Shown here piece by piece: positions 759 to 64,000 of a stretch of DNA of 64,000 nucleotides (positions are counted from its first letter, which is position 1; each line of letters starts with the position of its first letter). A model generated the notes under the pieces. The model made no database searches. It had not been told where the DNA came from and saw nothing but the letters and a program-made list of their open reading frames with translations. The DNA lies in assembly GCA_964016885.1 (NCBI GenBank), contig OZ024747.1, forward strand, positions 70,742,001-70,806,000. Direction: 5' to 3'. The DNA comes from Eledone cirrhosa (taxonomy: Eukaryota). The position numbers and the translations under genes are program-made.

Positions 759-1394
759 TTAATTGTAAGTTGTGATGTTGCTATTCCATTCATGTTTTCT
801 ATTTAATTTGGGTTGGAGTTCATTTATGTTTATTGCCTCTATGATTTGTCTAAACATTGCGTCTTTTCTGTGTGTAGATTCTATTTTTATTTCTATGTTC
901 TCTAATTTTCCCTTATGTTCTATTTTAGCATGTTGGTGGAGTATTGATGATTCTTTTTCATATTGCAGTTCTCGCCAGTGTTCATTTAACCGTTCTCCTA
1001 CACTACGAGCTGTCTCACCTATGTACACTATATTCTTATCTTTACATTGTCCTTCAGTACATCTTATGCTATATACTACATTTCTAGTTTTACAGTTAAT
1101 ATGGGGTCTTAGTTTACAGATTATGCATTTCTTATCTATACAGGGAGGTCTTTGAAAAGGGTATGTATTGCTAATAAGTGTTTTTATGGAGGTACCTGGT
1201 CTTTCTACTATCTTAATATTAAGCTTATCTTTATCTAGGGCCCTTCTAAATTTGTAAGCTAATTCACCTCTAGGGGTTGTATTGATGAACATTACACTCT
1301 GGTATTTATTGCTATCATACCATGAGTTTATTCTATTAACCTTATTCCTAGTTCTTTCTATTCTATTCCAAAATTTGCTCCTATACAAATTCAA
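759..1394 (-). CDS. PLE ORF C-terminus: RT thumb end, Cys linker and GIY-YIG endonuclease (partial)
   Basis: CIDKKCIIC linker; NVVYSIRC...C...VYIGET.R...RLNEH...SILHQH (GIY-YIG with CCHH); C-terminal EA..I....PKLN. Confidence 0.88.
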   Translation of the reverse strand: MNLYRSKFWNRIERTRNKVNRINSWYDSNKYQSVMFINTTPRGELAYKFRRALDKDKLNIKIVERPGTSIKTLISNTYPFQRPPCIDKKCIICKLRPHINCKTRNVVYSIRCTEGQCKDKNIVYIGETARSVGERLNEHWRELQYEKESSILHQHAKIEHKGKLENIEIKIESTHRKDAMFRQIIEAININELQPKLNRKHEWNSNITTYN

Positions 1395-1604
1395 ACTATA
1401 TTTCCATTATTTATTTTCAGAATAATTGATTATGAATAATTTTGAACCTCCAAATTTGTGGAAGAGACACGGATTTCTTCTTTGAATCCACGCTGGGAGT
1501 ACAAATAAGACCAGAAGATCAACTCCCAGAACAACAGGTGACTCACTGTCTCATCCAAAGACGTTCCCAGAGTCATGCAGACAAAGTTTCCAGAAAGGGA
1601 TAAT

Positions 1605-5446: not shown

Positions 5447-6553
5447 AACACCGATAACAAGTGGGGTGCCTCAGGGGACAGTCCTGGGACCACTACTGTT
5501 TTTGGTGGCTCTCTCGGACATGCCCTCTGTGGTGCATGCAACAACATCCCTCACTAGCTATGCTGATGACACTAAGGTAGCACAGGCAATCAAAAACCCG
5601 GCTGACGCTGCCCTCTTACAGCAGGATCTGGATGCCATATACAGATGGGCGGAAGAAAACAACATGCAGTTTAATGCTGGCAAATTCCAAGCCCTACAAT
5701 ACAAACCTACAAACACAAACACAAATATAGCGGAACACAGCTACACAGGACCAGGAGGGACCGATATCCCCGTGTCAAAATCGATACGAGACCTGGGCAT
5801 AGACATGAGCGATGATGCATCTTTTTCTTCACACATCATTAAGGTGGCGACAGCATGTAGACGATTCGCTGGCTGGATCTTGAGGACTTTCCTTACAAGA
5901 GATCGAGACACCATGTTGACACTGTGGAGGACTTTTGTCCTAAGCCGCCTGGACTACTGCTCCCAGCTGTGGTCACCCCATAGTGTCAAACTAACCACAG
6001 AGCTTGAGGCAATCCAGCGAAGCTACACCAAGAGGATTGCCAAGATGAGGGAGACAAGCTACTGGGAGAGGCTGAAGGAACTGAACCTCTACTCCTTGGA
6101 GCGAAGACGGGAGAGATACGCAGTGATCTACATGTGGAAAATCCTGGAGGGACTAGCACCAAACTTTGGCATTGGGAGCTGGACCAACCGTCGAACAGGA
6201 CGTCACTGTGTGGTGCCAAAGGTCCCGTCTTCCACATCTAGAATAAGGAGCAGGTATTGCAATAGCCTGGGATTCAAGGGCCCTCCACTCTTCAACAGGC
6301 TGCCGAGGCATCTGCGAGACTTGCATGACGTGGAGGTGGATGTCTTTAAGAAACATCTCGACACCTTGTTATCCAGGATCCCGGATGAGCCCACAGCAAG
6401 ACACGAGGGAAACCTAAGGGCAGCAGCAACAAATTCCCTCCTACACCAGTGGCCAACCTATACAGGCTGGAGATAAAATGTGTAGCAACAAGGGCGGTGC
6501 CCCAGCATGGCCTCAGCCGGATGGCTGAAACAGGTAAAAGAGTAAAAGAGTAA
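5447..6553 (+). mobile_element. 5'-truncated CR1-group LINE inserted in (TA)n
   Basis: RT motifs in ORF 5466-6476, a short 3' UTR and a (GTAAAAGA)n tail. Confidence 0.9.
5466..6476 (+). CDS. CR1-type reverse transcriptase, C-terminal half (partial, uninterrupted)
   Basis: [55 protein letters not shown]. Confidence 0.9.
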
Positions 6554-6654: not shown

Positions 6655-6719
<65 letters not shown>

Positions 6720-6844
6720 GGAGGTGAGTTTTATTGTAGTACAATAAAGCAATGCAGATATCGGATAAGAAGCACTCTACAGTTTGTAGAACTGGAGTAT
6801 ACATAATATATAAGAACAAAAAATGGTTAAAAGAGTTCCATGTA

Positions 6845-6911
6845 TTTTATTATGTGCATTTCAAAAACAAATATCATGTTGCAATAATATTTGTGTTTTC
6901 ATCAGATAAAA
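6845..6911 (-). ncRNA. Type-I hammerhead ribozyme, PLE family A, left arm
   Basis: Reverse complement of 7042-7108. Confidence 0.85.
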
Positions 6912-7041
6912 CAGGAGAACATGATATGAAGGCTAAAAAACACTTGTGGATAGTGCAGTTTTAAATCAACATATATGGATATGTTGATTTAAAACTGCAC
7001 TATCCACAAGTGTTTTTTAGCCTTCATATCATGTTCTCCTG

Positions 7042-7108
7042 TTTTATCTGATGAAAACACAAATATTATTGCAACATGATATTTGTTTTTGAAATGCACA
7101 TAATAAAA
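7042..7108 (+). ncRNA. Type-I hammerhead ribozyme, PLE family A, right arm
   Basis: Stem I TTTTAT/ATAAAA; core CTGATGA (7048-7054); stem II AAAC-ACAAATATTA...TGATATTTGT-TTT; GAAA (7091-7094); minimal stem III ATG-CA-CAT; triplet AUA, predicted cut after 7102. Confidence 0.87.
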
Positions 7109-7138
7109 TACATGGAACTCTTTTAACCATCTTTTGTT

Positions 7139-7210
<72 letters not shown>

Positions 7211-13989: not shown

Positions 13990-14161
13990 TAATCAAAGTT
14001 TAGAATATATAACATCAAAGCCAGAACACAAAAGCATTGTTAGTTAAATGGTTCTGGAGATAAAACATATAAGATACAATGAAAGTTAAATCAATTCTTA
14101 TCAAGGTTCAAATAAAGACTGCTTCCTCTTAAAGTAACTATTACAGTACTACTTTCTTATA

Positions 14162-17100
14162 AAAATAAGACTTGTCCTCAATAGAACTACGGTGACAGTA
14201 ATATCTGCGTACGCACCCCAATCCGGACTGCCTGGCACTATAAAAGACAGATTCTATGAGACACTGATGCTCACTACCTCCCAAATAACCGACAGTGACT
14301 ATATAATTATTGCAGGCGACCTAAATGTTGGACAACATTGTGACGGATACGACGAAATCCATGGAGGCTATGGGTTTGGTACTAGAAATGAGGAAGGCTC
14401 CAGAATCCTGGAATTCTGTGACGCAAATAACCTAACTATCTGTAACACTAACTTCAAAAAACGTGACAATCACCTGATCACCTATAGATCCGGGGAACAC
14501 ACAAGCCAGGTAGATTATATCCTTACCAGAAGACATGACAGAGTGTCTGTTGTAAACACTAAATCCCTCCCCCATGAAGAATGCACCTCCCAACATAGAC
14601 TGATAATTAGCGACCTAACAGTCAGGACGAGACGTACTAGACAACAGAAGAGGACTATCCTCAGGAGAAAAATATGGAAGCTAAAGGACCCCACAGCCAG
14701 AAATAAATTTAAAAGCATACTACTTGATGCTTTCGACAGTAAGGAAGAGCAATTAGAGTCGTACAATATAGAGGAGCAGTGGGAATTCCTGAAAGCAAAC
14801 CTGCTGATGGCGGCAGATGAAGTCTGTGGCTGGAGCAGGCCTGTAGGCAGGAGGAGAGTAACATGGTGGTGGAACAGTAAGGTGGAGGGGTGAATTAAGG
14901 CCAAAAAGCAGGCTTGGAAAGTATGACGGGATGGGGGAAGTAGAGAAGACTATCAAGTGGCCAGGAGGGAAGCTAGGCGACAAGTGAAATTCACAAGATG
15001 GGAAGCAGAGGAAAGAAAGTTCAAGCATGTTCTACAACGCAAGGACCAAAAACGTGAGGTGTTCAGGATTGCTAGGCAATGTGTCAAGGAAAACCGTGAT
15101 ATTGTCGGGGAGAAGTGTGTACTTAATGATGACGGCGTACTTGCCATCACCGACGCAGATAAGAAGGTAGCTTGGAAGTGTCACTACGAAAGGCTACTAA
15201 ATGAGGAGAATAAATGGGAGAAAGACAGTCTCCCCCACATCGACCCAATAGAGGGCCCAGCAGTGTTTGTCGAGGGTAGTATAATAAGTAAGGCAATCAA
15301 GGATATGAAGACGGGTAAGGCAGCTGGGCCTTCGGAAATAGTTGCTGAGATGCTGAAGGCATCTGGCACGGTGGGACACACCATGGTCACCCAGATAGTT
15401 AACCAAGTCGTACAGAATGGGGTTGTTCCGAAGGACTGGCGTAGCAGCATCATCGTTAACTGTTATAAGGGTAAAGGAGATGCCCTAGATAGGAGTAACT
15501 ATAGAGGCATTAAATTAATCGACCAAGTCATGAAGGTCACGGAAAAAGTAATAGCGCAACTAATCAGAGAGAGAATTGACCTAGATGAAATGCAGTTCGG
15601 GTTTGTGTCAGGCAAAAGTACCACAGACGCTCTTTTCATTGTACGACAACTACAGGAGAAGTACTTAGCTAAAAGTAAACCACTATACTTAGCTTTTGTC
15701 GACTTGGAGAAAGCCTTCGACAGAGTCCCCCGTTCCATTATCTGGTGGGCTCTTAGAAAACTAGGTGTCGACGAATGGCTTGTGAGAGCTATACAAGCCA
15801 TGTATAAAGAAACAGTCAGCAAGGTTAGAATTAACAACGAATATAGTGAAGAGTTTAGCGTAAAAGTTGGCGTCCATCAGGGCTCTGTTCTCAGCCCCCT
15901 ACTATTTATTATTGCCCTTCAGGCTATAACAGAGGAGTTCAAGACCGGTTGCCCATGGGAACTCCTATACGCAGACAACCTAACACTCATGGCTGAATCA
16001 ATGGCCGAGCTAGAGAAGAAATTCCAAACATGGAAGCACGGCCTAGAATCAAAAGGCCTTAAAATTAACCTGGCTAAGACCAAAGTTCTAGTTTGTAGGA
16101 AAGAAAATAAGGCGGCGGTCCCTTCCGGGAAGTGGCCATGCTCAGTGTGTAGGAAAGGCGTAGGTAGAAACTCCATTTTGTGTCAGAAATGCAAAGTATG
16201 GGTGCATAAAAGATGTAGTGGGATCACAGGTAAGCTAACTAAGAACATAGATCTTTTTACATGTGGCCGATGATCTGGTGCAATAAGTAGCAGCAAGTGC
16301 CCACAAAATACTAGCTCTTTCAACTGCGCAGAGGGCTCTATAGAAATAGTGGACAGCTTCCGTTACCTGGGTGACAAAATCAGCAGTGGGGGAGGGTGCT
16401 CTGAAAGTACAGTAGCTAGAGTCAGAACTGGATGGAAAAAGTTCAGAGAGCTTATACCACTATTAGCCGCTAAAGGGTTCTCCCTAAAAATGAAAGGCAG
16501 GTTGTATGATGCCTGCATACGAACAGCAATGTTGCATGGCAGTGAGACCTGGGCATTGTGTGCAGAGGATATATGCAGACTAGAGAGGAACGAAGCTTGC
16601 ATGCTCCACTGGATGTGTAATAGTAATATACGTGAACGGCAAAGCATAAACGAACTAAGGAAAAAATTAGAAATAAGAAGGATCAGATGTTGTTTACTCG
16701 AGAGAAGGCTACGTTGGTATGGACACATGATGCGCATGAAAGTCGATAGCTGTATAACAAAGTGCAGGGCAATAAAGATAGACGGTAACCACGGAATAGG
16801 CAGACCTAGAAAAACCTGGGACGAGCTGATAAACTCAGACCTCACACACTTACACCTCTCCAAGACAATGTCACTGGACCGAGACCTTTGGCGGTACTCA
16901 GTAATAGAGAAGACCCGCCTTACCTAAATACATAGTAAAACCTACTACAGTCAGTAGGCATCTCTAACAAAATACACCCCCGTCCCACCACCCCCACCCC
17001 ATCCACACCGCCCCCTTCTACGTAAAGTTATGTTGGTGCCACACCATCCAGGCCGAAACAAATGAGATCGTGTAGGTGTCACGACAAAAAAACACACAGT

Positions 17101-23955: not shown

Positions 23956-24328
23956 GATAGAAATAGATACATATATATATGTTTACATGTCTATATACTC
24001 TATGTGTAATGCACATATTCACACCAACTCAGTTAGTCCTGTACTGTATATATATATACAGATATTTATTTTGTGTTGATAGTGCAAATGACTCTTTATA
24101 TAGTCATTATTTGTTCTATAGAATTAATTGATATATTATGAGGTTAGAATTGTATTAGTGTAAGGGGTGTTGAATTGATGTAGGATATTGAGGTACTGTT
24201 CTTAGGTTATAGCAGGCATGGGCAACCTTTTTTGAGAAGTGGGCCGCTTGAGATATATATGCATATATGTATACATATATGCATATATAATATATAAGAA
24301 CAAAAGATGGTTAAAAGAGTTCCATGTA

Positions 24329-24395
24329 TTTTATTATGCACATTTCAAAAACAAATATCATCATGCAATAATATTTGTGTTTTCATCAGATAAAA
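24329..24395 (-). ncRNA. Type-I hammerhead ribozyme in the 3' pLTR of PLE family A, sense to the ORF
   Basis: Minus strand TTTTAT-CTGATGA-stem II-GAAA-TGTGCA-TA-ATAAAA. Confidence 0.85.
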
Positions 24396-24764
24396 CAGGA
24401 AGACATGATATGAAGGTTAAAAACACTTGTGGATAGTGCAGTTTTAAATCAACATATGAGAAGTAGTTTTAGATTGATGTGTGATATTGGGAAAAAAATA
24501 TTTTATTTTGAGGGGGGGTGGGGTGGAAAGGATGAAAAAGAGGAGGAGATGAGAGTAAACAATGGAGAGGGAGGAGTATAATGAGGAAGGATGAGATAGG
24601 AGGAGAGATGGGTGATAGAGAGAGAGAGATAGCTTTTATAACTGAGAAAGATATATTGTTTTACATAGAGAGGTTGAAAACCGTTGGAAGATAATGTATA
24701 AATTAAAAGAATTTGAAAATTAACGAAGAGAAAAATAATGTAAAGTTAAGGTTTGTATATTGAG

Positions 24765-24930
24765 GGGTTTAATAATATGTGCGATGGAAAGAAAATGTTA
24801 ATATGTATTAAGAATAATATTTAAGGGTTTAATAACATGTGCGATGGAAAGAAAAAGTTAATATGTATTAAGAATGATATTTAAGGGTTTAATAATATGT
24901 GCGATGGAAAGAAAATGTTGATATGTATTA
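24765..24930. repeat. 60-bp tandem repeat, about 2.8 copies, in the PLE 3' UTR
   Basis: GCGATGGAAAGAAAA recurs at 24781, 24841 and 24901. Confidence 0.9.
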
Positions 24931-25328
24931 TTAAAAAGAACAACAGGTAATTTAAGTAAGGATATATTGTGAGATGAGCATGAATGAGTTAGATGAAAGG
25001 GAGAAAAGAATAATGAATTGAGGATGAATAATCTAACGTCAAAAAAGTGTTTATGTTTACGAAGGATTTTTACAAGGTGATATAGGGTAAGAATGTATTG
25101 TATTATGTAATAATTGATTCTATGTTAGGCAACAGTGAGAAAAGGTACAGATTAGGGGTTAGACATTAAAAGAAAAATAGGAGCGATATAGAATGAGTAA
25201 CAAGTATTATATAATGTATAATAAAACCTTTGAAATAAGGTAGAAAGATGGGTATATTTTTAAAGAAGTGTATATATATATATATGTGCCTTTGAGAAAA
25301 AGATTCTAAATTGATAAAGATTTGGATA

Positions 25329-27465
25329 TTAGCTGTATACTTTGTGGAATGTTTTGTGGAATTTATGCAAGCAGATAGAAAACCAGTCAGTGCGTCTATT
25401 TATTATAGAATCTAAATTAGATATAATGGTAAATTTTTCATTTAGACAGAGATTGCAAATCTTGGATAGAGAACTGTTCAAGTATGGAGACGCAGAATAA
25501 ACCTTCTTCCAAAAGATGCTATATTTAATATTTTTGTCTTTCAAGGACCATATGAGTTCTGAGAGAGCCGTGTTGGTTCTTTTAAGTTTGTATTTAAAAG
25601 ACGAATGATGGTTATGAAGACGAGCTTTAAAAGAGGTGGAAGTGGAGCCAAAATAGGTGAAGGAATTGGTGTCAGTTATAACTTTACATTCGTAAATTAA
25701 GTTTTTATCAAGACAATGGTTGTTGAGAGGACATTTATTTTTAACAGGGCAATTGCAATTGCGATTAGAGAGATTATTAACGAGTGACCTAGTGTTATCT
25801 ATAGAATGAATTGGATTGGAGAAGTTATTTGCGATAGGAATAATAGTTTCTTGATTTAGAATGGGATTAAGAACATTTAGCAAAGTTGTGTTTGACGTTG
25901 TATTTGGGTTTGCAGAAATTAGCCTAGGGTTTACAATGACGTCGGGAGTACTATTACTATTATTATGATATTCAGTGTTGGAAGGAAGAGATTTAGTATT
26001 TAGTATTTTATTGTTGTGTTTAGAGATAATGTTGGAAATGTTGGAGGATGTAGAATAGGAAAATTTTATAGTGTGTTTGTTAAATATTTTACTATAGATA
26101 TGTGAGGGAGGGAAGCATTTATTTAAGGCACTAAAGAATAATTTAGGAATATTATTATTAATAGAGATGGAGAAAGGAGCATTATACCAGATTATGTTTT
26201 TGTATCTAGGTCTTTTATTAAAGTTATTGGAATGATCATGATTAATTATTCTACTGTAAGTTCTTCTAGAATTTGATTCTTTACTATATTTGATTTTATC
26301 AGGATAGCCGGCTTTAGAAAGCGCGTTATTATAGTAATTGGCGTTAGCATCAAAGATGTTTTTATTAGAAGATAGGTTAGATATTATTTTTCCAATATTA
26401 CTAACTATAGCATTCTTGATATTAGTAGGATGGTTAGATTTAAAGTTAACATAATTTAGGTTCTCATTGTTTTTATGGTAAGGGTAATATAGGCCAGTGT
26501 CAAGATTAAGAGATACATCCAAGAAACTAGTTTGATGCTGTTATCAAATTCAATTTTTAGGTTATGTTGGTTAAAGAGATTACGTATATTGTTCTTAATA
26601 ATATTAAGGTTAACTATGTTGCAATTTAAGATAGTAAAGAGTCCATCGTCACGATAAATTCCACCGCGAAGTTGAGGAATTTTCCGACTTAAAGAGTTCA
26701 AAATAAAGATACCAATTAAATCTGTCAATTGGGATGAATCGGATGCTTCCATTGTGATGTCGAAGTTGTTAGAGGTATCGGCTCTGGTCCAATATTCGTT
26801 GATGAACTCTAGGATGGTTTTACGTGCGGTGAGAATGATGTGAAGTTCATCTGTGGTGATGTCAGAATATTTAAGTGCGAAAGATAGAGCATTATTGAGA
26901 AGTGAAGGCGAAATAGAAGAATAGTAGCTGGCAATATCAAATTGAACAAATTTTAGTTTGTTTTTATTATTCAATTTGTTGAACCAGCTAATCACTTCAG
27001 AAGTACCAAACCATAAATTTAGGTTCAAAGAAGAGCAATTAGAACGAATCTGTGGGATAATTCTATCCAAGATGGCTTTACTAACAACCCCCAGATCTGA
27101 TTTAGAGGGGGCGATTAATCTAACAGGTAGTTCAGTGCGAAAATTGTTTTTGTGATCCTTGAGATTTATCCTCGGAGTTCTTGAGAGGAATGGTTCGGTC
27201 TTTTTTTCAATGCCAAGTTTTGACATAATCTCAGAGGCTTCAAAGTTTATGTATTCTAAATTATCATGGTTGGTTTTATGATATTTTTTCCTAACTTCCG
27301 TTAGGATAAGGTTTTTATAATTATCCTTGGAAATACCATATAAGTTATTGGTTTTGTCAGAGTGGACTAAAACATTTTTTGAGGAATTTAGGTTTGAAAT
27401 TGTGTTCTTGAGATTTACAAGGTGTTCTTGTCCTTTGTAAGGGTATCTCTTGAATTTAAGATTTT
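25329..27465 (-). pseudogene. PLE RT-GIY-YIG ORF with one frameshift near 26525
   Basis: SDKT upstream of the 26456-27226 ORF in the same frame, RLIAPSKS, QFDIASYYSSI, YRDDG; then (FL)DVSLNL, SNHP, CNCPVKNKC, LIYECKV...YFGST...FKARLHNH, CNLCLNEK. Confidence 0.9.
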
Positions 27466-27562
27466 TTATATATTATGTATACTCCAGTCCTACAAACTGT
27501 AGAGTGCTTCTTATCCGATATCTGCATTGCTTTATTGTACTACAATAAAACTCACCTCCTAC

Positions 27563-28646
<1,084 letters not shown>

Positions 28647-29412
28647 GGTTATACTTTGGGAGGGTCATGTTGCCAATAAGAAACACACGCACCAGTTGCT
28701 TTCACTTCAATTTATTATGTATTTATAAATTTACAAATCTATAAATTTATAAATTTCTGGTTGGTTGGTTGGTTCCACAACCAGATAGTTGTTTATATAT
28801 AGTCATAGTCCTTTCGTCACACACTCTGTGACCTCTTCAGTGACTGGGGATTCCTTTCTTTGTTTCTGTGCCTTTCCTTTCTTCTGTCCTACGCCATTTT
28901 GTTTCTGTGTGTGTGTTGTGTGCTCAGTTTGCGCATGCGCCTCACCCGGGTGTCTGTGTGTGTTTGTGTTCATTTATCTATTTGTTTATTTATTTACATG
29001 TTGTTGGTTGGTTGTTTGTTCTTTGTGTGTGTGTGTTTTCATTTTGTCCTTAATTGTAAGTTGTGATGTTGCTGTTCCACTCATATTTTCTATTTAATTT
29101 TGGTTGTAATTCTTTTAGCATAAAAGAATTACAACCAAAATTAAATAGAAAATATGAGTGGAACAGCAACATCACAACTTACAATTAAGGACAAAATGAA
29201 AACACACACACATAGAACAAACAACCAACCAACAACATGTAAATAAATAAACAAATAGATAAATGAACACAAACACACACAGACACCCGGATGTGGCGCA
29301 TGCGCAAACTGAGCACACAACACACACACACAGACCCTCCCAAAGTATAACAATATCGGTTTCAACACACGATTTCAGATAAAGAATCTTGCTAATCAAA
29401 TTCAGAAACGAA
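28647..29412. mobile_element. Fold-back mini-element from the 3' end of PLE family B (arm 28647-29117, loop GCA, internally deleted arm 29121-29351, tail 29352-29412)
   Basis: TAATTCTTTTA-GCA-TAAAAGAATTA centre. The arm encodes [20 protein letters not shown], as in ORF 759-1394. TA arrays on both sides. Confidence 0.92.
28801..28845 (-). ncRNA. Minimal type-I hammerhead ribozyme, PLE family B
   Basis: Minus strand AGTCA-CTGAAGA-G-GTCAC-agagtgt-GTGAC-GAAA-G-GA-C-TA-TGACT. Stems I and II are perfect and the triplet is CUA. Confidence 0.87.
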
Positions 29413-30622
<1,210 letters not shown>

Positions 30623-30819
30623 AGAGATATATTTGATATATCTCATATGAAATAATACAGCCAACTTTCCACGCAATACAATTAGTTACCACCCCGAACG
30701 TCTAATTAGGGATATACTCAGTTATTTCCTAATGTTTGTTGAGTGAGTTGGGATTTGGCCGGAGTATCGCTATTAGCTTTCTCCGATTATGTATTTATAT
30801 ATATATATATATATATATA

Positions 30820-32634: not shown

Positions 32635-33913
32635 CTGTGGATGTTTATTCAATGTCTAGGATGTATTGTGCCTGAAAATAAGATGGGATGGTCAACATTG
32701 GAATGTCTTTGATTCGAAGTTTGTCCAATTAGAACTGACCTGCTGCTAAGGAAAAGAACGCAACAACAATAAGAGAGAACTCTCTATACATTCTTTCGAC
32801 CTCTTATATTTAGCAGGCAAATCTTTCTTAGACTACACCATATCCTACTAAAGTCTTTGTTACCACAGATTTATTCAGTTGAGCGTTGTTTCAGCAAATA
32901 GCACTCATAAAGATTTACCTGAGAATCATGATGAACCACAAAAAACTAACAACTCTCTACCTACTTGATATAGGGGGCAGTGTTCCAAAATTGATGCAGT
33001 TTGATGGATTCAGTAAAGATTTTTCAGTGTAGAATGAAAGAATTTTGTAGGTATTCTACTGGTATATGTAGTTGTAAGTAGGCATAACATACTCTAATTT
33101 GTTTAGATAAAGTTTTGCATTGACAGTTGCATTTAAACTTTCTATGGTGGATTTGGTACATTTTGGCCTAAGCTTTTTGTACATTTGCTAATATGTTTGT
33201 GTCAGCCATGGATCTATCATTTAATATATATACATTATATATATTTCCATTTAACATTTAGGCATTTATGTATATTTCCATGTTGTATTTATGTATAACT
33301 CGTCAGTTTTTTGCATTTATATATTTTTCATTATTAAGCTGGTTTAAAAGATAACGTATCAAAGTTTCTTACATACAATTAGAATAGAAGAGTTTTAGGT
33401 TAATACGAACATTTTAAAATAAACAGCTTAGTATAATAAAAGGTGAGGTAGTATCAAAGAAACAGAGGCAGTTTCTGTCAGTTTCGTGTCGAAAGGGTTT
33501 AGCAAAGAAAGTGAATATTTCATAATGTTATCCTGGATAAACATGTATGGAATAGGGGTCAAGTCTAGACTGTGTTTCATTATAGTTCTTATTGTTCAAG
33601 GCTGGCATAACGTTAAACAGCAGTGCAACAACTGTATGCTACTATTAAAACACACACACATATATATATATATAAATTAAATTCTATCATTTATTAATGT
33701 TCCTACAATTTTGATGCCTCTTGTATGCTGGAGGTGTTTTCAATATTGGGCAATGAAACCTTAGGTAGAGCTTTTCTTCTGTGTATAAACGTTAATAAAT
33801 AGTATAATATATTTGCTCTCTTTCTGATTGAGCATTATTTTCCGTTTTCATTTCACACCTATGGATATTGCTACATATTCACACACACATATATAAATAT
33901 ATATATATATATA

Positions 33914-36295: not shown

Positions 36296-36483
36296 ATATA
36301 GAAGAGCTTCTACGGGACTAGAACTGCTTCATTTGTGAGAAATCATCAGGAAGCTCTGATGATTTCTCACGAATGAAACAGTTCTAGTCCTGTAGAATCT
36401 GTTCTATATGAAAACATTTATACTCTGCTATGTATGGAGTACCTTACTTACTGTGGTTACCTCCGATTCAACCCAGAATAACT
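36296..36483. mobile_element. Fold-back mini-element family D (arms 36296-36349 and 36356-36409, tail 36410-36483) with hammerhead core relic
   Basis: 54-bp inverted arms and loop GAAGCT. The right arm starts CTGATGA-TTTC-TCAC-GAAT-GAAAC. TA-flanked. Confidence 0.8.
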
Positions 36484-37074
36484 TATATATATATATATGT
36501 ACTTAACACGCACGCACACACACACACACACACAAATATATATATATATATACACATACACACACACACACACATATATATATATGTATATATTGATATA
36601 TTCATATGCTTGTATATGTGCAAATATACATTATCTCTTCTTTGATTTTGATTACTCAATACATTTACTTTTTTTCTTCAGTTTTTGTTTTCTTCTTCAG
36701 CCACCACCACCACCACCACCCAAATTGCTGGCCTTGTGCCTATAGTAAAATTGATTATTATTATTATTATTATTGTCCCTTGGAAGTCTCCCCCCTATTG
36801 GGGAATTTTTCTTTGTTATTTTATTTCAACCTCTGTTTTTTTACACGCAGAAATGCCCATTTGTACCGTCCTGTATTGTCCTGTACTGTCCTTAATGTCT
36901 ACTTTATGTGAACCCTTGTGGTTAATAAAGAAAACATTATTATTATTATTATTATTATTATAAATAAAATGTCATGCACTGGGGTCCATTTCATGGACTT
37001 TCCCCTCCCACCAAATTGATGCCACTCCCAGCAAATTGCTGGCATCAGAAACCATTATAAATATTATTATTATT

Positions 37075-55845: not shown

Positions 55846-56097
55846 GTGTATATGTATATATATTTATATAGATGTATATATATGCAAATATACAAATGTA
55901 TGTATATATGGATTTTAGTCTTCAAATTTATTATTATTACTATATATATATATAACAAAGGCAGTGTGGTAAGGAACCAGGTGGACCATAACGCACCAGA
56001 GTACTCAATACTTTGGGTAATAGAGTGGGTAATAGGAAAATGGTCCAGAAATAGCCATCAAAATGGCTTCAGCTCTGTCGTCGGAGTCTTGAATATT

Positions 56098-56129
<32 letters not shown>

Positions 56130-58581: not shown

Positions 58582-61400
58582 TGTAGGTTTTACTTTGTAT
58601 TTAGGTAAGGCGGGTCTTCTCTATTACTGAGTACCGCCAAAGGTCTCGGTCCAGTGACATTGTCTTGGAGAGGTGTAAGTGTGTGAGGTCAGAATTTATC
58701 AGCTCGTCCCAGGTTTTTCTGGGTCTGCCTACTCCGTAGCTACCGTCTATCTTTATTGCCCTGCACTTTGTTATACAGCTGTCATCTTTCATGCGCATCA
58801 CGTAACCATACCAACGTAGCCTTCTCTCGAGTAAACAACATCTGGTCCCTCTTATTTCTAATTTTTTCCTTAGTTCGCTTATGCTTTACCATTCACGTAT
58901 GTTACTATTACACATCCAGCGGAGCATGCAAGCTTCGTTCCTCTCTAGTCTGCGTATATCCTCTGAACAGAATGCCCAGGTCTCACTGCCATGCAACATT
59001 GCTGTTCGTATGCAGGCATCATACAACCTGCCTTTCATTCTTAGGGAGAACCCTTTAGCGGCTAATAGTGGTATAAGCTCTCTGAACTTTTTCCAACCAG
59101 TTCTGACTCTAGCTACTGTACTTTCAGAGCACCCTCCCCCACTGCTGATTTTGTCGCCCAGGTAACGGAAGCTGTCCACTATTTCTATAGAACCCTCTGC
59201 GCAATTGAAAGAGCTAGTATTCTGTGGGCACTTGCTGCTACTTATTGCACCAGAGCACCGGCCACATGTAAAATCTATGTTCTTAGTTAGCTTACCTGTG
59301 ATCCCACTTCATCTTTTATGCACCCATACTTTGCATTTGGGACATAAAATGGAGTTTCTACCTACGCCTTTCCTACACACTGAGCATGGCCATTTCCCAG
59401 AGGGGACCGGCGCCTTATTTTCTTTCCTACAAACTAGAACTTTAGTCTTAGCCGGTTAATTTTAAGGCCTTTTGATTCTAGGCTGTGCTTCCATGTTTGG
59501 AATTTCTTCTCTAGCTCGGCCATTGATTCAGCTATGAGCGTTAGATCATCTGTGTATAGGAGTTCCCATGGACAGCCGGTCTTGAACTCCTCTGTTATAG
59601 CCTGAAGGGCAATAATAAATAGGAGGGTGCTAAGAACAGAGCCCTGATGGACACCAACTTTTACGCTAAACTCTTCACTATATTCTTTGTTAATTCTAAC
59701 TTTGCTGACTGTTTCTTTATACATGGCTTGTATAGCTCTCACAAGCCATTCGTCAACACCTAGTTTTCTAAGAGCCCACCAGATAATGGAACGGGGGACT
59801 CTGTCGAAGGCTTTCTCCAAGTCAACAAAAGCTAAGTATAGGGGTTTACTTTTAGCTAGGTACTTCTCCTGTAGTTGTCGTACAATGAAAAGAGCGTCTG
59901 TGGCACTTTTGCCTGACACAAACCCGAACTGCATTTCATCTAGATCAATTCTCTCTCTGATTAGTTGCGCTATTACTTTTTCCGTGACCTTCATGACCTG
60001 GTCGATTAATTTAATGCCTCTATAGTTACACCTATCTAGGGCATCTCCTTTACCCTTGTAACAGTTAATGATGATGCTGCTATGCCAGTCCTTCGGAACA
60101 ACCCCATTCTGTATGACTTGGTTTAGTATCCGGGAGACCATGGTGTGTCCCACCGTTCCAGAGGCTTTCAGCATCTCAGTAACTATTTCCGAAGGCCCAG
60201 CCGCCTTACCCGCCTTCATATCTTTGATTGCCTTACTTATTATACTACCTTCGACTAACACTGCTGGTCGATGTGGGGGAGACTGTCTTTCTCCCATTTA
60301 TTCTCCTCATTTAGAAGCCTTTCGTAGTGACTCTTCCAAGCTACCTTCTTATCAGCGTCAGTGATGGCAAGTACGCCTTCATCATTAAGTACACACTTCT
60401 CCCCGACAATATCACAGTTTTCCTTGACGCATTGCCTAGCAATCCTGAACACCTCACGTTTTTGGTCTTCGCGTTGTAGAACATGCTTGAACTTTCTTTC
60501 CTCTGCTTCCCTTCTTGCGAAGTACACTTGTCTCCTAGCTTCCCTCCTGGCCACTTGATAGTCTTCTCTACTTCCCCCATCCCGCCATATTTTCCAAGCC
60601 TGCTTTTTGGCCTTAATTGACTCCTCCACCTTACTGTTCCACCACCATGTTACTCTCCTCCTATCTACAGGCCTGCTCTTCCTTACTGTCGAAAGCATCA
60701 AGTAATATGCTTTGAAATTTATTTCTGGCTGTGGGGTCCTTTAGCTTCCATATTTTTCTCCTGAGGATAGTCCTCTTCTGCTGTCTAGTACGTCTCGTCC
60801 TGACTATGAGGTCGCTAATTATCAGTCTATGTTGGGAGGTGCATTCTTCATGGGGGAGGGATTTAGTGTTAACAACAGACACTCTGTCACGTCTTCTGGT
60901 AAGGATATAATCTACCTGGCTTGTGTGTTCCCCCGATCTATAGGTGATCAAGTGATTGTCTTGTTTTTTGAAGTTAGTGTTACAGATAGTTAGGTTATTT
61001 GCGTCACAGAATTCCAGGATTCTGGAGCCTTCCTCATTTCTAGTACCGAACCCATAGCCTCCATGGATTCCGTCATAGCCGTCACAATGTTGTCCAACGT
61101 GACCGTTTAGGTCGCCTGCAATAATTATATACTCACTGTCGGTTATTTGGGAGGTAGCAAGCATCAGTGTCTCATAGAATCTGTCTTTTATAGCGCCGGG
61201 CAGTCCGGATTGGGGTGCGTACGCAGATATTACTGTCACCGTAGTTCTATTGAGGACAAGTCTTATTTTCATTATTCTGTCATTCACTCTATTTACGTCT
61301 ATTATCTTATCTGGCCACTTTTCTGCTACTATGATTTCTACTCCACCCAGCCCATTGTCATTTCCCACCCAGAAAAGATTATAGCATCATTCTTTACCCA
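58582..61400 (-). mobile_element. RTE LINE of the same family as 14162-17315; truncated at both ends and disabled
   Basis: ORF pieces 60661-61368 (APE), 59434-60297 (RT, YTDD), 58886-59179 and 58601-58801. Frameshifts and deletions. Confidence 0.95.
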
Positions 61401-61786: not shown

Positions 61787-64000
61787 TATCATCATCATCA
61801 CCGTTTTACGTCCGTTCTTCCACGCTAGCATGGGTTAGACGGGTTGTCCTGTTGTGGGCAGTGTCTGGTCGGCTGACCATGCCTTGCTCATACAGGAACT
61901 GATCTGGCTTGATTTCTACAGCTGGATGCCCTTCCTAACACCAACCTCATTTACAGTGAGTGCTGGTGCTTTTTCGTGGCGCCTACACGTCCACTTTACA
62001 GTGTGGGCTGGGTGCTTTTTTGCCGTGGCACCTCCACGACCACCTTGCGGTGGGGGGGGGGGCATATTGTTTATATGCTTCAGCATGTACCCATGGGAGG
62101 TCGGGTACCCTGTATTACTGCGTGACGCCAGAAGTCACGGTCGTGTGTCATTGACTTTGAGAGCTGTAGTTGGGTAAGGTCGGCTTTTATCACCTCATCC
62201 CAAGTCATCTTGGGTCTCCCCACTCCGCGGTTTCCATCAACTTCTAGTGCTCTGCACCTTTTTATGCAGCTGTCATCCTTCATACGCATCACATGTCCAT
62301 ACCAGCGTAACCGCCTCTCCTGCACGCAGCATTTGATTCCTCTTATGCTCAGTCTCTCTCTCAATTCATTTATGCTTTGTCGTTCACGTATATTACTGTT
62401 ACACATCCATCGGAGCATGCAGGCTTCGTTTCTCTCTAATCTACGTAAGTCTTCCACCTTCAGCGCCCAGGTCTCACTACCATGCAACATCGCTGTTCGG
62501 ATACACGCATCATACAGTCTGCCTTTCATTCTGAGGGAGAAGCCTTTTGCAGCTAGCAGTGGTAGTAGTTCCCTAAACTTCTTCCATCCCGTTCTTACCC
62601 TAGTTATTGTACTTTCTGAGCACCCACCTCCGTTGCTAATTCGGTCACCTAGGTAGCAGAAGCTGTCTACTGTTTCTACAGGGCCCTCCCAGAGATTGGT
62701 GGTACTTGTTTCCTGTGGTTGTTTGCTTGCTGTTTCAGCACAGCTGCTGCATGTGAATCCTACATTCTTAATTAAGCTTCCTGAGATCCCGCTACATCTC
62801 TTGTGTACCCATTGTTTGCATTTGGGGCAAAGAATGGAGTTCCTACCTACACCTTTCCTACATACTGAGCAAGGCCATTTCCCTGAGGGGATCTGGGTTC
62901 TGTTTTCTCGTCTACTTATAAGGACCTTAGTCTTTGTCATGTTGACTTTGAGGCCCTTTCTCTCTAGTCCCTGCTTCCAGGTTTGGAATTTATTCTCTAG
63001 TTCTACCATAGATTCAGCTATGAGTGCGAGGTCATCAGCATACAGGAGTTCCCATGGGCATCCGGTCTTAAACTCCTCCGTTATTGCCTGCAGGACTATG
63101 ATGAACAGGAGAGGGCTAAGAACAGAGCCCTGGTGGACCCCAACCTGTACGCTAAATTCCTCGCTATACTCATTGCCAATCCTAACTTTGCTGACTGCTC
63201 CCCTATACATGGCTTGTACCGCTTTCACAAGCCATTCATCTACTCCTAGTTTTCTAAGAGCCCACCAGATTACTGCACGTGGAACTCTGTCAAAGGCTTT
63301 CTCAAGGTCGACAAATGCCAAGTAGAGTGGCTTACTTTTAGCTAGGTACTTTTCCTGTAATTGCCTCACAAGGAAGAGCGCATCAGTGGTGCCTTTCCCT
63401 GGTACAAACCCAAATTGCATCTCGTCTATATTCACCCGGTCCCTAATCAGCTGTGCTATAACTCTTTCTGTTACTTTCATGACCTGGTCCATCAACTTTA
63501 TACCTCTATAGTTTCCTCTATCTAGTGCATCGCCTTTACCTTTGTAGCAGTTGACAATGATGCTACTGCACCAATCTTTTGGTATGGCCCCCTCTAGTAT
63601 TACCTGGTTAACGATACGTGTGGTTATAGTGTGACCTACAGACCCAGATGCCTTCAGCATCTCGGCAGCTATACCCGATGGACCGGTTGCCTTCCCTATC
63701 TTCATATCTCTGATTGCCTTACTTACTACGCTGCCGCTGACTTGTACTGCTGGTCCCTCTATAGGGTCTACGTGGGGTAGGGTCTCTTCTTCCCATGCAT
63801 TCTCCTCATTTAGTAATCTATCATAATGACTCTTCCATGCATCTTTCTTCTCAGCACTTGTGAGGGCAAGCTCACCTTTATCATTCCGGATACACTTCTC
63901 TCCAATGACATCACAACTATCTCTGACACACTGCCTCGCAATCTTGAATACCTCCTGTTTCTGGTCCTCACGTTGTAAAACATGCTTGAATTTTCTATCC
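61787..64000 (-). mobile_element. RTE LINE of a sister family with complete 3' end, running off the window edge
   Basis: (CAT)n tail on the + strand, 3' UTR and uninterrupted ORF. Confidence 0.95.
62080..63999 (-). CDS. RTE reverse transcriptase with PHD-like finger (partial, open to the window edge)
   Basis: YRGIKL, QFGF, FVDLEKAFD, GVHQGSVLSP, intact YADD, CSVC...CPKC...HKRC...CSSC. Manual translation of 63706-63999 shows no stop. Confidence 0.93.
   Translation of the reverse strand, partial: DRKFKHVLQREDQKQEVFKIARQCVRDSCDVIGEKCIRNDKGELALTSAEKKDAWKSHYDRLLNEENAWEEETLPHVDPIEGPAVQVSGSVVSKAIRDMKIGKATGPSGIAAEMLKASGSVGHTITTRIVNQVILEGAIPKDWCSSIIVNCYKGKGDALDRGNYRGIKLMDQVMKVTERVIAQLIRDRVNIDEMQFGFVPGKGTTDALFLVRQLQEKYLAKSKPLYLAFVDLEKAFDRVPRAVIWWALRKLGVDEWLVKAVQAMYRGAVSKVRIGNEYSEEFSVQVGVHQGSVLSPLLFIIVLQAITEEFKTGCPWELLYADDLALIAESMVELENKFQTWKQGLERKGLKVNMTKTKVLISRRENRTQIPSGKWPCSVCRKGVGRNSILCPKCKQWVHKRCSGISGSLIKNVGFTCSSCAETASKQPQETSTTNLWEGPVETVDSFCYLGDRISNGGGCSESTITRVRTGWKKFRELLPLLAAKGFSLRMKGRLYDACIRTAMLHGSETWALKVEDLRRLERNEACMLRWMCNSNIRERQSINELRERLSIRGIKCCVQERRLRWYGHVMRMKDDSCIKRCRALEVDGNRGVGRPKMTWDEVIKADLTQLQLSKSMTHDRDFWRHAVIQGTRPPMGTC

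Follow-up and report, generated by a model that had tools for sequence, protein, structure and literature searches.

A truncated Penelope-like element and its inverted tail in a TA array of Eledone cirrhosa: probable origin from two putative hairpin-marked priming sites

The window, the whole stretch of 64,000 nucleotides of Eledone cirrhosa DNA that was analysed, carries at 24287-27562 a dead, 5'-truncated and frameshifted Penelope-like element (PLE) with an inverted tail, located in a TA array. The footprint of an inverted tail is a published PLE signature, present here in a clean tail-only form and with an unusually long tail. The footprint itself is ordinary; the new content is a hairpin rule for two starts of reverse transcription, together with a fixed 5' stop. 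Probably, the enzyme of the element cut both strands of the TA array, and reverse transcription then began from each end at one of two internal starts, which are predicted to be marked by hairpins. The following features were assigned.

24287..27470, minus strand: long arm, a 5'-truncated Hydra-type PLE (RT, EN, 3' UTR, pLTR), assigned by sequence comparison
26456..27470, minus strand: RT in the first frame, with DKT motif and YRDDG; aligned with relatives, its start lies about 80 aa into the protein
25329..26540, minus strand: second frame past a frameshift near 26526, with thumb, N-rich insert, CxCx5C linker and GIY-YIG-type EN
24287..24457, minus strand: pLTR-like terminal 171 nt, common to the long copy and a mini-element
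24329..24394, minus strand: type I hammerhead motif from our own pattern search, with a long stem II and a palindromic stem III; the CTGATGA core is at 24389 and the predicted cut after 24335
24287..24297, minus strand: end point 1, AT-rich terminus without tail, 48 nt past the predicted hammerhead cut
27466..27562, plus strand: inverted tail of 97 nt; end point 2 at 27562 adjoins the TA array
27466..27470: junction microhomology TTATA, ORF strand versus tail strand
27482..27508, plus strand: bulged hairpin 1 (CTC, stem, loop, stem, 2-nt bulge, GAG), then YRCT
27563..28670: target array, (TA)n interrupted by TGC; right end approximate
6717..6974, minus strand: arm of the mini-element that carries the tail, hairpin 1 (with its CTC at 6797) and the hammerhead motif; reaches the base equal to 24457
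6979..7147, plus strand: mini-element arm without tail; starts likewise at the base equal to 24457

Read on the plus strand, a TA-rich flank is followed by the element (24287-27470, sense on the minus strand), the tail (27466-27562, sense on the plus strand) and a long TA array. Sequence comparison confirmed two statements of the first-pass annotation: the 3' end of the long copy lacks the tail and runs into the TA array, and the tail lies inverted at the 5' truncation point near 27470. Positions 27463-27575 matched the reverse complement of the left end of the mini-element (6816-6704) with 96.5% identity over 113 nt (E 1e-48, TA flank counted). The inverted piece had been given as 95 bp and its joint as a shared TTATATA. 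Both the piece and the microhomology held, at corrected lengths of 97 nt for the tail and 5 nt (TTATA) for the perfect overlap. The first 11 nt of the inverted tail duplicate the 3' terminus of the long copy itself (24287-24297). The left flank at 24277-24289 contains a 13-nt match across the insertion that is compatible with a TSD; the same 13 nt occur 74 times in 27563-30641, and the match is not diagnostic. TGC-interrupted (TA)n makes up the target array in 27563-30641, with other sequence near 28670-29400.

The open frames of the long copy on the minus strand extend over 26456-27472 and 25329-26540, and other copies of the family have four more letters at 26526 than the window copy. Without its 5' part, the long copy measures 3184 nt; it exceeds 3 kb because of the N-rich insert and a 3' UTR of about 870 nt. 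A 60-bp unit is repeated 2.9 times within the 3' UTR at 24757-24930. The Asn-rich insert, which is in frame and comprises about 70 aa, lies between thumb and EN at about 25760-26000 (minus strand) and resembles the N-rich inserts of Adineta PLEs in the literature text available; the relative P0003 has a longer low-complexity insert at this site. In a folding check, stem II of the hammerhead folded, and the whole tail folded no better than shuffled sequences (z -1.17).

Other copies were read from five of 18 public sequencing runs (X1, X5, X6, X16, X17). Three X1 contigs carried the ORF through the junction and left the window sequence after 27470, and the perfect ORF-tail overlap was therefore set to the 5 nt given above. 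By eye, 10 of 11 positions agree if a one-base gap is allowed. The loose letters of these contigs translate, again by eye, to FEEEL, compared with FEx[DE]L in relatives at that place. One X6 contig aligned as far as 27477 with 4 differences in 34 nt; the donor overlap may therefore have been longer. Among the 24 listed of 1300 pieces, none bridged the ORF-tail joint and no such joint was listed, so that the assembly is the sole source of the window junction.

The mini-element consists of two arms that are 97% alike and are separated by four extra letters (6975-6978), with a near-palindromic centre. Identity was 94.3% between 24283-24457 and its 6799-6974, and 93.7% between 24270-24457 and its right arm (7168-6979). 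These arm matches, together with the tail match, bear out the earlier observation that the long copy and the mini-element have the same two termini: on one side TA array / tail end ...CCTCCTAC, on the other side ...GTTCTTATATAT / TA array. Our own script placed type I hammerhead patterns in the mini-element at 6905 (minus strand) and 7048 (plus strand). Its hairpin motif (6797) is situated 54 nt past the predicted hammerhead cut, and the motif precedes the tail end by 81 nt in both copies (27482 and 6797). The strict hairpin motif was found four times in the window, compared to 0.07 times per shuffled window (100 shuffles).

Similar structures occur elsewhere in the window. An unrelated mini-element of like layout at 36296-36485 (plus strand) has a short inverted arm without tail and a long arm with a CTGATGA hammerhead-like core; its bulged hairpin is located at 36423, and its tail stops in TA about 61 nt past the hairpin start. 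At 55950-56110 (minus strand), a TA-flanked short element carries a bulged hairpin (CTC at 56025) with a TA run 71 nt on; an inverted arm was looked for at this element and none was found. A weaker match at 32923 (minus strand) has a 3-bp inner stem and lacks a TA run in the 200 nt around it; chance or an old copy may account for it.

The RT of the long copy was 28-42% identical to five longer proteins (P0001-P0005), of which the best named one is from Argonauta hians, and the second frame matched P0004 with 30% identity (E 2e-45). Pfam gave no significant match for either half of the protein. Rfam did not recognise the hammerhead and returned only TA-driven miRNA-like and other sub-threshold matches. 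The features of EN+ PLEs are present: RT plus, at the C-terminus, an endonuclease of GIY-YIG type (IYEC...YFG) in one ORF, split here by the frameshift; a pLTR with a hammerhead motif predicted by our own script at 24389 (minus strand); and an inverted 5' piece with a one-sided tail. The tail is longer than described, with 86-97 nt in the long-copy family versus 30-40 nt in the PLEs covered by the available part of PMC3846280.

Judged by motifs, with the reference sequences compared by eye, the long copy appears to match the Hydra clade of C-terminal EN+ PLEs as described in the accessible portion of Craig et al. 2021 (PMC8557442). DKG is changed to DKT, the CxCx5C linker is present as CNCPVKNKC with no CX2-5CxxC, and the EN has CNLC and CLH as the CxxC and CxH expected close to the conserved E and N; inspected by eye, it has no CCHH. 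A hammerhead lies near the 3' end, and the copy is located in (TA)n, the target described for the clade. RW[KREM] was found in P0001-P0003 and P0005; the N-terminus of the long copy is truncated. The clade is described there as generally short (<3 kb); the long copy, with its N-rich insert, is longer, extending over more than 3.2 kb though truncated (3184 nt for the truncated copy as such), compared to units of 2447-2503 nt in relatives. The same source lists the clade member Penelope-13_HM with an inverted and 5'-truncated copy on its 5' side. Hydra-1_Obim, also of the clade, belongs to another family than the long copy, with a different hammerhead sequence. The Hydra-clade section, as far as available, makes no mention of hairpins at end points.

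The hairpin rule is derived from 14 related loci (L001-L014), eight of which have a visible ATG. Two CTC...NN-GAG-CACT motifs were present in five of these eight (L001, L003, L004, L006 and L007; L003 and L006 are near-identical). The twin motifs are 59-70 nt apart, with the second 33-40 nt ahead of the ATG, and the first lies 42-56 nt past the predicted hammerhead cut in the four loci where the latter was seen. The order is hammerhead, hairpin 1, hairpin 2, ATG. One copy of the motif was found in the other three ATG loci, in L002 and L008 because a contig end or an inversion cuts the region, and in L009 with the twin spacing not matched. With an inner stem of at least 2 pairs, the motif occurred 9 times in 1569 nt before the ATG, but only once in 15431 nt of ORF. 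Inner stems vary in sequence but keep their pairing: a script counted 43 pairs in 14 instances, compared to a shuffled mean of 8.5 and maximum of 23, and the number fell to 0-4 with other bulge sizes. The instances were hand-picked and the count of 43 is hence inflated; L006 and the window mini-element (near-duplicates) as well as L009 (misfit) were left out, and MAFFT left the 5' halves of the hairpins unaligned. Hairpin 2 was weak (inner stem 1-2) in four of six instances.

The exact distance between copy end and hairpin was measurable in two relatives. The 3' copy of L006 stops at an ATTT array, 3 nt short of hairpin 1; that of L001 stops 7 nt short of hairpin 2, with 46 nt left to the ATG, and has its tail in direct orientation. 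L014 stops at TA about 54 nt past hairpin 1, and L002 and L008 stop at TA 44 and about 32 nt, respectively, past the hammerhead cut. L005 and L008 begin with inverted pieces at contig ends, which were left out of end mapping, and L010-L013 had no usable ends. Four contigs (L003, L004, L007, L009) have identical ends and represent tandem or circular full units, the length of which is given above; 3' UTR, hammerhead, hairpins and ATG are continuous in them. By comparison with these relatives, the tail is probably the 5' UTR of the next tandem unit and not the RNA end. Hairpin 2 and a 5' UTR continuation in the long-copy family itself were found in none of the listed loose ends. The tail contains an ATG-led open frame of 29 codons; a function as ORF N-terminus was not favoured, as the ATG of relatives follows hairpin 2.

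In the public runs, the ends of the family were far more abundant than its middle. Summed word depth in X1 was 1.5 million for the terminal 170 nt and 0.87 million for the tail versus 6-88 thousand in the ORF bins, and X16, a RAD-seq run, gave about 1800 reads for the terminal 170 nt and about 2400 for the tail versus 51-555 in the bins between; neither measure represents copy numbers. Among the 15 listed of 70 X1 joints, two were of the tail-pLTR type seen in the mini-element, two were deletions in the 3' UTR, and 11 linked 24447-24457 to variable tail positions. Position 24457 was reached exactly in eight of these 11 forms (overlap 0-4 nt). ATAT occurs at ten places in 24290-24700, yet the joints favour 24457, which lies in a TCA context. 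Because these eight joints and both arms of the window mini-element stop at this position, we infer a fixed RNA 5' end, and 24457 is likely the transcription start. Tail arms ended within about 10 nt of end point 1 in six of 14 listed forms, and at 27510-27533, just 3' of hairpin 1, in the other eight (the 11 X1 joints plus three more from 12 listed of 88 rows).

Behind 27562-27573, no non-TA continuation was seen among the loose ends listed (19 of 79 rows), which were all TA-rich. The pLTR was the left neighbour of the tail in 24 contigs of X1, three of X5, four of X6 and 1615 reads of X17 (again among 19 of 79 rows); in short contigs, a tail beside the pLTR may be in direct orientation at the 3' end or part of a hairpin, and the two look alike. 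The tail as an independent element was ruled out, its listed left neighbours being the pLTR or the 24457 end. One X1 joint connects 27562 to 25268, with the tail end in a short TA run of the 3' UTR of the element; here, one copy was inserted into another. An exact 30-nt tail pattern gave 0 matches in metagenome contigs, and relatives were found in 0 of 52 candidates from viral contigs and 0 of 132 from genome contigs.

In the mechanism that we consider probable, the element enzyme would cut both strands of the TA array, and each cut end would prime reverse transcription at one of two internal starts on the element RNA, with a small bulged hairpin just downstream predicted to set each start. 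From start 1, just before hairpin 1, the primer would have copied 3.2 kb upstream through 3' UTR, EN and RT. From start 2, before a putative hairpin 2, the other primer would have been extended by just 97 nt, as far as start 1, and the two cDNA ends would have been joined through TTATA. A like reaction near the 5' end of the RNA, presumably at 24457, would yield the mini-hairpins as abundant short copies. That the tail cDNA would have stopped at start 1 points to a collision on a single RNA; the mini-element would need two RNAs or strand displacement, because 170 nt were copied by both arms. In support of the mechanism, both window copies have the same termini, and the unrelated 36296-36485 family shows a like layout. 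Against one site per strand, top and bottom strands showed no start-site difference in vitro (PMC11167929).

The first-pass annotation had proposed that priming took place twice, on opposite strands of a (TA)n break. This fits the anatomy, the fixed outer ends, the variable inner joint and the in vitro result of PMC11167929; the two-primer idea is largely right and largely anticipated in the literature. Its other part, that one start is the RNA end, is likely wrong: the equivalent of the tail in relatives continues into hairpin 2 and the ATG, and both starts are internal there. We regard a true RNA 3' end at the tail end, with one primer starting there and the other annealing to an internal ATAT site, as unlikely. 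An AATAAA is present at 27544-27549, 13 nt ahead of the tail end, the listed loose ends lack a non-TA continuation, and end point 1 reads UUAUAUAU, which could pair with a TA target. But the terminus has no poly(A), the AATAAA forms one half of a local palindrome and is missing from the last 30-40 nt of the four other tail ends inspected, and the equivalent end in L001 is internal, as described above. Annealing of an AT-rich site of the element to the TA target as such is possible.

Inverted pieces could also arise by self-priming or fold-back synthesis, with an endonuclease resolving the product at staggered sites so that the tail stays on only one side (Arkhipova 2013; Craig 2021). This is the published reading of head-to-head PLE palindromes in the available parts of PMC3846280 and PMC8557442, and the similarity of the mini-element arms and their near-palindromic centre agree with it. 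It is improbable here, since fold-back needs arms that share the joint sequence, whereas the joints of the long copy and of 11 listed forms connect different element parts and overlap by 0-5 nt; furthermore, RT starts in vitro coincide with the two ends of the tail (PMC11167929). The window junction could, on the other hand, be a later deletion: the copy would have begun as a regular head-to-head insertion, in which a longer or full element follows the tail and an inverted pLTR, and would have lost its middle by microhomology deletion or by recombination with mini-elements. Microhomology deletions are common in PLE copies according to the part of PMC3846280 at hand, the overlap at the joint is an AT-rich 5 nt, the long copy is decayed (frameshift), and by depth the mini-elements far outnumber ORF sequence. 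The joint is, however, located at end point 1, as in six of 14 listed mini-element joints, and we give the deletion little probability. It would leave both start sites in place; only the stop of the tail cDNA at start 1 would fall.

Internal initiation at two starts has a precedent in Poseidon_Ac (Frangieh et al. 2024, PMC11167929). Purified PLE protein cut and extended both strands in vitro, two internal RT start sites in a stem-loop bounded the tail, uncleaved hammerhead RNA served as template, and a dimer was predicted. Poseidon_Ac belongs to another clade; its starts are located in an AC-rich stem-loop, 111-118 nt into the ORF, and the main text of that paper contains no twin motif and no inversion model. 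Other PLEs, as described in the available text of Arkhipova et al. 2013 (PMC3846280) and Fig. 2 of Craig 2021, share the optional tail at one end, the head-to-head 5' piece and microhomology at the 5' joint. In the PLEs of PMC3846280, the tail lies at the ORF start; in the long-copy family it would lie in the 5' UTR, judged from relatives. Unlike the inverted pieces described there, that of the long copy consists of the tail alone, without an inverted pLTR. With L1 twin or dual priming (Meyer et al. 2010, PMC2837659, in the portion available), the long copy shares inverted pieces joined with little or no microhomology and would share two primers on opposite strands. The same source describes the one-RNA (twin) and two-RNA (dual) versions as indistinguishable from sequence, with the first priming at the poly(A) end and the second at a variable internal site. 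In the long-copy family, both starts are fixed and likely internal, and neither end has a poly(A); the long copy works like twin priming, yet is not the L1 case. Hammerheads on opposite strands 100-700 bp apart are noted in the accessible text of PMC4209133, and the word 'tail' is absent from the available part of a retrozyme preprint (10.64898/2026.07.22.740005). No report of a twin hairpin or a fixed 5' stop was found in the literature on PLE priming, initiation and octopus inverted repeats, of which few subscription papers were covered.

On the origin of PLE tails and inversions, the available part of PMC8557442 calls for an in vitro system, and PMC11167929 gives two start sites, with later steps unvalidated. 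Two-ended priming becomes directly testable through a short named RNA motif at a fixed distance from the two end points, together with the fixed 5' stop and the many junctions found in nature, and the hairpin motif bears on the choice of template start by telomerase-related RTs. More tentatively, and with somewhat less confidence than in the mechanism itself, the twin bulged hairpins of the Hydra clade may each load one RT of a dimer, one per cut TA end, a few bases upstream of the hairpin. If true, such a loading rule would explain the one-sided tail (as the spacing of the two hairpins) and the head-to-head inversion; inversions of the tail alone would result from a collision at start 1, and the swarm of mini-hairpins from both cDNAs running off a fixed RNA 5' end. 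Telomerase-related enzymes would thereby gain a defined template-positioning element.

Further retroelement fragments were located in the window. A second PLE endonuclease fragment at 759-1406 (minus strand; Pfam GIY-YIG, E 3e-4) has a linker of the CxxxxCxxC type and hence belongs to another clade. RT and EN fragments of non-LTR retrotransposons of other kinds were found at 14138-16927, 59434-61386, 62080-63999 and 5448-6476, with an RVT_1 match for 5448-6473.
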